Part shown: in pieces, positions 9,001-12,000 of the stretch
Numbering within the stretch: the stretch's first letter is position 1
Layout: each line of letters opens with the position of its first letter
From: a virus
Lineage: Duplodnaviria > Heunggongvirae > Uroviricota > Caudoviricetes
Reading direction: 5' to 3' (one strand)
DNA: 15,995 nt
Virus record (IMG/VR): IMGVR_UViG_2531839661_000011
Program-made: the position numbers

Positions 9001-12000
9001 ACACCTTTTGGGGATAAATTTTTATTTATTCCTCTGAGAAAAATTTTATGACAGAGAAACACGCCCAAAAATCACATTCACACGCTATTGATTTAACCGA
9101 ACCGGAATCTGTTGTGAGGTTCGTATCGGTACGAGGCAGAGCCACGCTTTATATACCTGACGAACATCTGCATCACTGCGACAAACATAAACTTCCGATC
9201 CTGATTGTCTGGAAGCGAACGTTATACGCCGATGTGACATGGCTGAATGATTCGCTGATGTTGATACACCGTGACCTGTTTGAACGTGAAGAGTTCCGGC
9301 GGGATATTGAAGAGCGGGCAGAAAAAATCTATGAGAAATATTCAGCAAACAGCAAAAGATCCGCACGGGCAATCGCTCACCATTTCATGACGCTGTATGA
9401 CCTGAAAGCGGAAGATGCAGAAAAAGCGGCATGTGATTTATTCGATATGACCACAGATATCATCCAGGAGTACCGGAACAAGGAGCGCAGACCATGACAG
9501 CACAGATTGCAGCTTACGGGCGGCTGGTGGACGACCCGCAGGAAAAACAGACCAGCAAGGGCACACCGATGACGCTGGCGCGTATGGCGGTATCTTTGCC
9601 ATGCAGTCAGGCACAGGGCGGACAGGCGACGTTATGGCTATCAGTCCTGGCATTTGGTAAGCAGGCCGACGCGCTGGCGAGACATGAAAAAGGCGACCTT
9701 ATCAGCGTGGCGGGTAACATGCAGATCAGTCAGTGGACCGGACAGAACGGAGAAACACGGCAGGGCTGGCAGGTTATCGCTGACAGCGTAATCAGTGCCC
9801 GTTCGGCGCGTCCTGGCGGGAAGCGGGGGCAACAGGGGAAGGCGACCGAAGCACTGGACAGAGCAAAGCGACAGACCGGACAGCAGGGAAATCAGCCACC
9901 AGCGGGAGGTGATGACCCGTTCTCTGACGATATTCCTTTCTGAAGGACAGGAGCACAACATGAACCAGCAGACCACACAACAGGACCAGACCACACGCAG
10001 ACCCACGGAGCGCCCATCATGGCGACACATGACGAAGAGGCAGCGAAAAAACCGCAGACGTATAAACCGACTGGCTGAGTACTGGCCTGAACTGTTTGGG
10101 GCAGAGAATATAAAACCCCTTAAGGCTGGCGTGATACACGATATGTTGAAGGACGCGAAGGCACGGGAATTACCGATTGGTCATGGCGTATTACGTGGCG
10201 CATTAACTTCATACATCCACACGACGCGATACCTGAAAGCCATTGTCGCTGGCGGCGCACGGTATGGACTGAACGGGCAACCTTGCGGTGAAGTCACGGA
10301 AGAAGATAAATCAGTAGCCAGCGAACTACTGAAACGGAGACTGGCGCAAATTAAGCAGCAAAACATCCAGCGGCAGGATACGGGAGGTGGTGAGAGTGAT
10401 AACAGACAGCGTGGCACAGAAACTTGAGGAGCGCGGTTTATGGCGACGTGCGGCGACCCGATGGTCTGACGTCCTTCTTCACGCAGAAACGGACAGGGAG
10501 CGCGAGGAAGCTGCCAGACGTCGGGGGATATGTATCATTAAATCCCGTCGTATGCCTGAGCAGTTCGTCACCTTTGGCGATGTGAAAAAGGCCGCAGACA
10601 GAACGCTGAAAGAGATGGGGATTAATCCGCAGGATGAATGGAAAAATTACAGCTTCAGTGATGCAGGCGACGATTTAGCGCTACCGTGATACGTATCTCA
10701 TCACCGTATTTGCTCAGTTATCGCGATTCGCTATAATCACCACCGAAGAGCCGTTGATGGTGTTCGCCTCTGGCAACTGGAGCCAGACTGCATGAAGCCA
10801 GTCAGCGGCTTTTCAGCACTCATTTTGATGTGTACTTGTCACACACATCGGGATGAGTGAACGACGAAAACATCACGGTGATTTCGTCATGCCGCGATAA
10901 GAATGTTCCCCTTTGGGCAATTGAAGCCCTCTGTGCAGAAGGTTATCGCGGTCAGGTTGTGATAAAAACGCGCCTCTTTGGGCAATTGAAGCCCACTGTA
11001 AAGCGGCTTATCACAACAGGCTGTAGCGGGTGCTTATCTTCTGGCAACTGGAGCCACCTGTACAGAGGCCCGTTACGGCTGACCCTGAATGATTTCGCCC
11101 CGTGCAATTGAAGTGCCCAGCGGAGTTATTCAGGGTTTTTTATTGCCCGTCCACCAGCACCACATCTGTAGCATTGATGCGTATACATTCGCCGTCAATT
11201 GCACCATTCCGGCCCTCACCGTCACGCGCAACAACAGAACGACCTGGCAGGCCATAACGCGCCACCTTTCGACGAACACCATCACCAGCGCCCTCACGAC
11301 GCTCAAACACATTAATCCGCTCAAGAAGACCATCACGCACCATAGCTTCCAGCGTGCGCCTTGTTGATTCGATCTGATACCGGCTGTTGAATGAATCCAT
11401 ACCATGCAGCAGGTAAGCCACACCGGAGACATCAAACGGCGGGTTGCCAATTTCAACGCTGACCCACGCCAGATTGTCGGGAGTGAAGTAACTGAGGAGC
11501 TCTTTTTTGTATTGCGTCAGTCTCATAGTGACCTTTCTTGTTGTAGGATGAATCCCTCATACAATAAGCCATAAGACAAATTTTGAAAGGACAGAATCGG
11601 CGGGGTACAGATGATATGTGATGACAAGGCTGAAGCGCTGGAGAATAGCGGCCTCTGGCGGCGTGCTGCTGAACGCTGGGGAGAATTGTTCAGACAGGCA
11701 AAAACTGATGAAGAGAGGCACTATATTACCCAACGAAGGGCGCAATGCACGGCAAAAGCCACCAGACCAAAAACAACAGAGTGGGGGCATGTATGCGCCG
11801 TCAGGGCAGCAGCGACCAGAACGCTTAAAGATATGGGGATTGACCAGAAAAAAGAAGATCCTTTACGGGGCACGAAGTACAGGGGTGAAACAGGGCGAAG
11901 AGACGGAAGTTAATATGGACACAATAACTGATAAAAAAGCCGAACAACTGGAATCTCAGGGACTATGGCGAAGAGCCGCCGCTCGTTGGCTTGACGTAAT

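Follow-up and report, generated by a model that had tools for sequence, protein, structure and literature searches.

The stretch of DNA analysed here, called the window below, is 15,995 nt long (IMG/VR virus record IMGVR_UViG_2531839661_000011). Over the 2.5 kb that were compared, it is 100% identical to a chromosomal island of Escherichia coli O145 strain RM9154-C1. We focus on a cassette of this island that comprises, all on the + strand, a gene for a single-stranded DNA-binding protein (SSB, nt 9494–9943), a gene for a ProQ/FinO-family protein (9960–10427, hereafter the FinO-like protein), a gene for a PerC-family regulator (10396–10689) and a noncoding stretch from which a hairpin RNA is predicted (10690–11140). 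An initial annotation of this DNA had suggested the FinO-like protein as a possible dedicated chaperone for the RNA-based immunity of a P4-type satellite.

The SSB reading frame (149 aa) matches PF00436 (E 1e-15, 58 bits for a cut-off of 26), TIGR00621 (64.9 bits, cut-off 53.95) and phrog_44, and it ends with the canonical acidic tip DDIPF. The next frame (155 aa), whose ATG is preceded by AGGAG, matches PF04352 with 87 bits (E 1e-24, cut-off 27) over profile positions 4–107 of 109. When compared to solved structures, a profile of its family matched the N-terminal domain of ProQ (5nb9, 1e-19), FinO (1dvo, 6e-17) and RocC (7rgt, 3e-16). The two gene calls made earlier are therefore correct, but not new, since RefSeq names the products of the identical RM9154-C1 locus “single-stranded DNA-binding protein” and “ProQ/FINO family protein”.

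The NCBIfam scores of the FinO-like protein for ProQ (60.5 bits) and FinO (58.1 bits) are both under the equivalog/subfamily cut-offs, so that it is neither ProQ nor FinO proper, and the best plasmid relatives are FinO proteins, which share 29–31% identity with it. Residues K55, G57, D61, R79, Y91 and R101 align to ProQ K35, G37, D41, R58, Y70 and R80 and are invariant among 15 family members; an RNA-contact role is known from the literature for the equivalents of ProQ K35, R58, Y70 and R80. A basic, Trp-containing stretch (W21, K26–R37) precedes the domain. The protein has this single domain, and the linker and C-terminal Tudor-like domain of ProQ are missing. It is thus shown to be a genuine FinO-domain protein, from a clade that is restricted to small islands in the chromosomes of E. 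coli and its close relatives, and judging from its sequence it very probably binds RNA. The perC gene (PF06069, 94 bits) has a GTG start and overlaps the 3′ end of the FinO-like gene by 32 nt. PADLOC returned no match to a known defence system for the cassette proteins.

Downstream of perC, the region 10690–11150 has a minimum free energy of −186 kcal/mol, against −141 +/− 6.4 kcal/mol for shuffled sequences (z −6.95), which bears out the multi-hairpin RNA proposed earlier at this place. The RNA is co-oriented with the FinO-like gene and lies about 320 bp downstream of it, and no credible open reading frame (ORF) was found on either strand of 10690–11140. A promoter-like TTGCTC-N16-TATAAT (10710–10737, + strand), read from the sequence, predicts a start near nt 10744. 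Three islands with arrays 8–11% different from one another keep its −10 box TATAAT (10732–10737) and the adjoining bases unchanged. The predicted transcript (10744–11141, + strand) is a structured RNA of about 400 nt with seven hairpins, five of which belong to one family and are called here units U1 (10743–10816), U2 (10891–10952), U3 (10956–11017), U4 (11019–11080) and U5 (11081–11141), all on the + strand. The two hairpins outside the family, at 10817–10859 and 10863–10888 on the same strand, come from the consensus fold. All five units have the same design, namely an outer stem of 10–18 bp, internal loops, an apical stem of 4–6 bp and a loop of 7 nt, which reads AAUUGAA, AACUGGA or AACUGAA (AAYUGRA), a YUNR turn being always present. 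U5 (z −6.2) has an 18-bp stem followed by six U, and is the predicted intrinsic terminator of the array RNA; this terminator is conserved, as is the promoter.

A consensus fold was computed from the whole-array alignment of six islands. It contains 134 pairs, of which eight show double compensatory changes and few are broken, and about 15 G·U pairs. In each of the six islands, the + strand is more stable than the − strand by 15–27 kcal/mol. Between islands, apical stems change in a compensatory way, from GGGC/GCCC to GAGC/GCUC and from CUGGC/GCCAG to CGGGC/GCCCG, and GUGC/GCAC is also found. The five units and three phage alleles described below adopt one common fold, although their outer stems are unrelated in sequence; the outer stems of the five units nevertheless all pair. 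The strand asymmetry (G·U pairs and the difference of 15–27 kcal/mol), together with the compensatory changes, argues for selection on the + strand RNA. The whole-array alignment was preferred to a covariance model of the single unit, because MAFFT placed the outer stems of the five units out of register (i+j offsets 81–85) and RNAalifold lost these stems. The outer stem of U3 also holds GGUUGUGAU and AUCACAAC, which resemble the R1 seed of GcvB and its CACAACA target consensus, of which the anti-sRNA AgvB makes use; this likeness is probably due to chance.

The array region was searched against 5,426 complete E. coli genomes and 50,697 phage records. In E. coli, the 113 full-length matches were islands. 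About 310 more genomes contained only a match of some 61 nt, at 98–100% identity, located in an 8.4-kb gene annotated as “LPD38/LPD5 domain-containing protein”. In the phage collection 175 records matched, and all were short-tailed Shiga toxin (Stx)-converting phages, including phi24B. In every case examined, the + strand of the array corresponded to the strand antisense to this giant gene. U2 (61 nt, 10891–10951) is 100% identical to one allele of the gene (L083), and 98.4% identical to the antisense strand of ECs1242/gp47 in prophage Sp5 of strain Sakai. U1 (71 nt, 10743–10813) shares 93–94% identity with another allele of the gene at this very site, and 94% with phage PhiR5_2. U3 is similar to the phi24B allele in its inner part, whereas its outer stem differs. 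The expectation of a phage allele for every unit thus held for U1, U2 and part of U3 only. At the phage site, the 8.4-kb ejection-protein gene thus contains the same hairpin on its antisense strand, with a U run behind it, and the homology starts and stops exactly at the borders of the hairpin.

This gene is essential for infectious phage: Sp5 ORF80/ECs1242 is required for plaque formation and lysogenisation, and not for packaging (PMC5155283), and gp47 of phi24B is an abundant packaged ejection protein. Two alleles of the giant gene (L083 6001–6523 versus L084 6001–6527) are 95–96% identical outside an unalignable block of about 480 nt, which begins exactly at the hairpin.

In Hfq cross-linking data (Hfq-CRAC) of strain Sakai, ECs1242 ranks 17th among coding sequences, and reads on its antisense strand far outnumber sense reads (for example 26613 versus 1456, and 73833 versus 3342). 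EcOnc36, an Hfq-bound orphan peak, was reported on the − strand of Sp5 in 5/5 samples, with a flag for a nearby Rho-independent terminator (Tree et al. 2014, PMC4104026). Its old coordinates, 1301433–1301515, were converted with a shift calibrated on AsxR (+136 to +142), which places the peak at about 1301575–1301657 of NC_002695.2. The Sakai hairpin occupies about 1301541–1301614 (− strand). The peak overlaps the 5′ arm and the loop of the hairpin, and extends 43 nt further upstream. Given this position and the terminator flag, we infer that the phage hairpin terminates EcOnc36, an sRNA whose target is given as unknown in PMC7873438.

The five units are thus of the EcOnc36-terminator type, and since they are homologous to this hairpin, they are complementary to the mRNA of the giant gene. 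U2 and the Sakai hairpin lie on the same strand relative to ECs1242. The island differs from the phage locus in having the hairpin module only, in five tandem copies behind a promoter of its own: the region of the peak upstream of the hairpin is missing, and only the last unit precedes a run of at least five U. As the gene to which this RNA is antisense is essential to Stx phages, a role in RNA matching, if there is one, would be directed at the phage, and not at the immunity of the island.

To place the FinO-like protein among islands, a degenerate-pattern scan of viral contigs was made and gave 79 loci with relatives of this protein. Their order is nearly always primase and origin, SSB (about 40% of loci), FinO and usually PerC. 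The frequency of FinO was estimated in islands anchored on a DUF4222 gene located 5′ of the primase. Among the 75 with enough sequence, 24, or about one third, carry FinO. As SSB is also found in islands devoid of FinO, and PerC occurs without FinO (the reverse being also true), FinO is optional cargo at the start of the variable region of the island, and not a core part of the element. In species-representative genomes only two FinO loci were found (Escherichia ruysiae and Serratia oryzae), so that synteny across species is thin. A 2026 survey of Enterobacter satellites (PMC13612085) names ProQ/FinO and PerC as accessory genes of phage-inducible chromosomal islands (PICIs), without further analysis and without a link to RNA or phage.

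At close range, FinO and array go together. Close relatives of this FinO-like protein were present in 116 of the complete E. coli genomes, mostly Shiga toxin-producing E. coli (STEC; O103, O111, O145 and some O157), a number close to the 113 genomes with the array. The SSB-FinO-PerC-array cassette is intact in an island whose integrase, integration site and replicase (DUF927) are all different, and also in front of different downstream cargo, in one case a restriction-modification system. In strain SCU-171 (L090 1279–1700, 1685–2875), a three-unit array comes right before a dcm methyltransferase gene and the gene of a type II restriction endonuclease, so that the cassette abuts defence cargo there.

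The explanation that we tentatively favour is that the FinO-like protein stabilises the array RNA and matches it to the gp47 mRNA of the phage. Two parts of this proposal can be graded separately. That complementarity to the phage gene, or to the phage sRNA, is what the array RNA acts by is a serious possibility, if somewhat short of probable; that the FinO-like protein is the chaperone of this RNA, a plausible client as the initial annotation had proposed, is a more doubtful one. The link between protein and RNA is favoured by their proximity and co-orientation, by the near-equal genome counts and by the cohesion of the cassette. It is further favoured by the RNA itself, which has bulged stem-loops, YUNR loops and a U-tailed terminator, like the antisense RNAs served by FinO-family proteins. 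The FinO-like protein would bind terminator-type hairpins of the array RNA, chiefly U5 with its U6 tail, and so would protect the RNA against 3′ exonucleases. It would also help the loops of the array to pair faster, by kissing, with those of the complementary gp47 mRNA hairpin. Synthesis of an essential virion protein would then be reduced or retimed in a resident or incoming Stx phage, and in this way the island would interfere with a helper or competitor phage, or manipulate it.

A wider version of this proposal, in which SSB, FinO, PerC and the array form an RNA-based module directed against phages or manipulating a helper, that is, a protein-assisted antisense “immunity array” of a satellite-like island, seems rather improbable to us. 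The units would then have been captured from one essential Stx-phage gene with its antisense sRNA, or updated by recombination with it, each from another allele; jointly they would silence the giant ejection protein or shift its timing, and the phage alleles would diverge exactly at the targeted hairpin as a counter-move.

Several observations weigh against the proposed FinO-array-gp47 link. On the phage side, U4 and U5 had no counterpart in any of the 5,426 genomes and 50,697 phage records. Since the conserved core of the phage site, GGGCAATTGAAGCCC, encodes GLQLP in gp47, part of its conservation is at the protein level. The identity of 98–100% to phage could reflect recent recombination rather than selection. 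The further chromosomal match found in 57 of the 60 best array-bearing genomes, versus about 5.8% of other genomes, speaks for the link in that it fits co-residence with Stx phages, but this association is confounded by STEC phylogeny. On the protein side, EcOnc36 was found on Hfq, and Hfq or host ProQ may suffice for the array RNA as well. U tails are present after U5 (U6) and weakly after U1 (U4), the other units being without the 3′ U tail preferred by FinO. The AlphaFold model of the FinO-like protein, built on a shallow alignment, is poor (mean pLDDT 55.6); its helix order, beta hairpin and long C-terminal helix are compatible with a FinO fold, and it is too poor for a fold search.

The distribution also counts on this side. 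Most FinO-bearing islands, with FinO about 50–57% identical to ours, lack the array, and BLAST and motif searches found it only where FinO was at least 81% identical. In two other lineages, the gap after perC had no unusual structure (z −1.5 and −1.4). The ancestral role of this FinO clade cannot, therefore, depend on the array, and being neighbours in a single lineage does not count as independent evidence. A universal partnership between FinO and the array was rejected on these searches; three single motif matches (in L017, L077 and L072) were also discarded, their fold being unlike that of the array units.

This distribution would be expected if the FinO-like protein served a function common to all carrier islands, such as control of island replication or copy number, or action with SSB on structured nucleic acid at the origin, the array being a later and independent neighbour. 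We consider this unlikely, though worth weighing. The protein could act through an RNA near the primase, in the manner of FopA with Inc and repZ, and its position behind primase, origin and, where present, SSB is constant in some 80 loci, whatever the cargo. One candidate for such an RNA was examined. The unannotated 40-aa ORF at 6810–6932 is a truncated form of DUF4222, and its stop codon overlaps the ATG of the primase (ATGA); in related islands (L002–L169) a full DUF4222 gene of 96–104 aa likewise overlaps the primase start. The first 12 codons of DUF4222 (MKKKNSGFTASG) contain an A run and a perfect hairpin, CTGGC-N6-GCCAG (6824–6843 in the window), which are kept at the nucleotide level while the flanks diverge. 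Read on the − strand, the hairpin looks like a FinP-like terminator covering the start codon of the primase, so that it could be either a 5′ structure of the mRNA or an antisense terminator. However, no convincing − strand promoter was found there, and one stem variant favours the + strand. Moreover, the hairpin is equally frequent in islands with FinO (22/24) and without it (49/51); it therefore gives FinO no specific support, and was rejected as a FinP-like client. The optional character of FinO, and its cassette being also found behind the unrelated DUF927 replicase, argue in the same direction, and we know of no control of P4-type primase replication by antisense RNA.

A role as broad, ProQ-like binder is equally unlikely in our view. 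Here the FinO-like protein would be cargo acting on transcripts of the host, of prophages or of its own operon, and the hairpin RNA would work alone with Hfq. By shielding the fino-perC mRNA at its 3′ end, the protein could tune PerC-type virulence regulators, or it could compete with host ProQ and Hfq. Its gene is adjacent to perC in most loci, here with the 32-nt overlap, and as no terminator separates perC from the array, the array may also be the 3′ UTR of the fino-perC operon. The Hfq binding of EcOnc36 and the location of the cassette in the variable cargo region are in line with such a role, and ProQ-type proteins bind many 3′ ends, including those of island and prophage RNAs (PMC9977716). 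Against it stand the separate occurrence of PerC and FinO, the small size of the protein, a single domain of 155 aa devoid of the linker and Tudor-like domain of the global ProQ, and the tight linkage of FinO to the array in this lineage.

It is still less probable that the hairpin repeats function as DNA or represent a scar of recombination (binding sites of a DNA-binding protein, patches of homology for exchange with Stx phages, or decayed phage fragments), unrelated to any RNA or to FinO. The core CAATTG is palindromic, the near-identity to phage DNA shows recent exchange, and island and phage also share a Q gene. However, selection appears to act on the + strand RNA, the homology is confined exactly to the hairpin, no ORF is present on either strand, and five tandem variants of one 60–70-nt segment are found between an invariant promoter and a terminator.

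Upstream of the cassette, Rfam confirmed the two C4/CI-like RNAs noted earlier at 5348–5409 and 5828–5890 as C4 antisense RNAs on the + strand (RF01695, gathering score 45): copy 1 at 5335–5422 (69 bits) and copy 2 at 5815–5903 (73.3 bits). Two terminator-bearing isrK-like leaders (49.6 and 37.6 bits), which end in a hairpin followed by U6–U7, accompany them. With these and the multi-hairpin RNA, the element is indeed rich in structured and antisense RNAs. C4-type RNAs are processed out of a longer transcript, and no terminator hairpin with a U tail is found at their end. In an Rfam scan of 19 diverse FinO islands, four had a C4 RNA (3 of the 16 for which the whole interval from int to FinO was available), and C4 was rejected as partner of FinO on this co-occurrence. 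FinO domains recognise a terminator hairpin with a U tail (PMC9977716), so that a C4 RNA is an unlikely client. The dedicated chaperoning of island immunity put forward initially thus found no support. That FinO attends to the C4/CI immunity RNAs, possibly with the isrK-like leaders, is very unlikely: these RNAs do lie 4–5 kb upstream on the same strand, but C4 is rarely present in FinO islands, mature C4/CI RNA is made by processing, isrK is described in Rfam as binding Hfq, and to our knowledge the C4-bearing P1, P7 and P4 have no FinO gene. One FinO locus, L078, has three C4 copies and two tandem FinO-domain genes (6875–7183 and 7339–7731, 52% and 45% identical to the query).

The pairing of the FinO-like protein with the array RNA can be compared to known systems. 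On mobile elements, proteins of the FinO family bind antisense RNAs at their terminator hairpins (PMC9977716, PMC7491321). In FinO-FinP/traJ of F-like plasmids and FopA-Inc/repZ of the IncI plasmid pCol1B9, a single-domain protein of this family is likewise encoded on a mobile element, with a basic N-terminal extension ahead of the domain as in the island protein. The ligands are long bulged stem-loops with 6–7-nt YUNR loops and a U-tailed terminator, as is the candidate ligand of the island. Protection of the RNA and faster kissing-loop pairing are the action of these proteins, and the same is proposed for the island pair. In contrast, the island protein is only about 30% identical to FinO, forms a separate clade and is found in chromosomal islands only. 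Its RNA is a tandem of five variant modules rather than one or two stem-loops, and the target lies on another element, the Stx phage, instead of in cis on the same replicon: no − strand gene was found under the array, and the only extended complementarity detected was to the giant gene of Stx phages.

Compared to the chromosomal FinO-domain proteins ProQ, RocC and NMB1681, the island protein has the same conserved Tyr/Arg pocket residues of the FinO domain, but no ProQ C-terminal domain, and it is optional cargo with a narrow distribution, its subclade being found mostly in STEC. On the RNA side, SviR of PLE is a satellite sRNA that regulates transcripts of both phage ICP1 and PLE. SviR and the array are both RNAs of an island or satellite complementary to phage genes; in Vibrio, SviR is one sRNA of the Hfq type, whereas the island has a predicted multi-module array beside a FinO-type protein of its own. 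FinO-FinP, FopA-Inc and SviR together provide a precedent for each component of the proposed system.

FinO-family proteins are known as partners of plasmid antisense RNAs and as global chaperones, and none has been tied to conflicts between phages and satellites. Here, an island-specific FinO clade of STEC adjoins an RNA built of copies of a Stx-phage sRNA hairpin, complementary to a gene for infectivity. If the link were true, it would provide the first proposed function for EcOnc36, and a new route by which islands control the output of Stx phages, hence the spread and release of the toxin. The system is also suited to the question of how a FinO domain selects few ligands. Even if FinO proves unrelated, the phage-directed hairpin array is a concrete and testable object.

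A further client had been proposed in a leftward sRNA at 14561–14647 (− strand), located 3′ of the Q gene and convergent to it, a site at which lambdoid prophages of enterohaemorrhagic E. coli bear sRNAs (PMC4104026). Its terminator, a 10-bp hairpin (14591–14568) followed by U8, was found, and an extended −10 box, TGnTACAAT, could be read from the sequence. In contrast, its fold is unremarkable (z −1.3), and the transcript stays putative. The candidate is present in 109 genomes, all from the same island lineage. Membership in the AgvB/AsxR group was rejected, its terminator being unlike their conserved 3′ region, and for this sRNA as for the array, Rfam returned no family even at E <= 1.

The rest of the island has the following layout. 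In RM9154-C1 it is inserted between yicC and dinD and stops before dinD, at about 15.1 kb. All named genes are on the + strand. RefSeq annotation and domain searches give an integrase (1–1263), followed by an AlpA-like/HTH_17 regulator (2297–2512), Rha (2580–3299), a GIY-YIG protein (3292–4068), an “Icd-like/Ash” region (4016–6125) which contains the two C4 RNAs and the two isrK-like leaders, and a D5/P4-family primase-helicase (6929–8752; PF08706, PF03288 and PF19263), the replication module 5′ of the cassette. TIGR01613 matches this primase at 94 bits, under its cut-off of 108.7. Between the primase and the next ORF, the segment 8753–9047 (no strand assigned) is an iteron field of dense GGTGAACAG / CTGTTCACC repeats in both orientations within a large imperfect palindrome (repeat families D2, D5, D6 and D19, inverted repeats I1–I17). 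It is presumably the replication origin, with iterons that we take to be similar to the ori repeats of P4. This field also attracts spurious matches to microRNA families of Rfam (E 0.05–0.5). Two conserved ORFs flank the cassette, at 9048–9497 (+ strand) and 11140–11526 (− strand), and their proteins had no match in Pfam, PHROG or PADLOC. Further PerC paralogues are found at 11611–12082, which brings the PerC-family frames of this island to three, one of them annotated as partial. The Q antiterminator gene is located at 13418–13816 (+ strand).

This layout is that of a PICI-like int-alpA-primase island. The int, alpA and primase genes are co-oriented at one end of an island of some 10–15 kb, and the order integrase, AlpA-like HTH, primase and origin, variable cargo is that of Gram-negative PICIs, which also have FinO and PerC in their cargo and a size of about 15 kb. 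Unlike in these PICIs, whose helper-dependent induction and packaging involve rpp, terS or capsid genes and cos/pac, no packaging-redirection or capsid genes were recognised in the island. P4-like traits are present as well, namely the P4-family primase (D5_N and Pox_D5 domains, TIGR01613 below cut-off), the iterons and, as in the immunity of P4 (CI) and of P1 and P7 (C4), two C4-family RNAs with leaders. In contrast to these systems, the C4 module is optional among FinO islands, hence not the partner of FinO. RefSeq annotation gives no psu, delta, sid, capsid or packaging genes, and the unassigned ORFs have no Pfam matches. Because psu, delta and sid are absent, the element is not the P4-type satellite that it had been taken for.

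Some details of the left part are worth mentioning. The RNA genes are overlapped by two ORFs (4016–5668 and 5622–6125) that carry the annotation “host cell division inhibitor Icd-like protein”, and the Pfam Ash match (aa 377–498, about nt 5144–5510) covers the isrK-like leader at 5156–5233 and C4 copy 1. The Icd-like protein call, and perhaps part of the Ash/Icd-like families, may be a translated RNA locus. Leader and C4 together make up the immunity unit, of which there are two tandem copies. The Rfam int-alpA RNA motif RF02996, absent from the window, was found in 4 of the 19 scanned FinO islands (L002 3307–3375, L017 2817–2884, L022 2410–2477 and L011 2476–2543).

Finally, Q of the island and Q of the Sp5 Stx2 prophage (ECs_1203) are 86% identical in protein and 85% in DNA. 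This resemblance and the EcOnc36-type hairpins tie the island to Stx phages, ties that are no more than suggestive of a helper link. Conceivably, the Q protein of the island engages in cross-talk with the late phage promoter driving stx.

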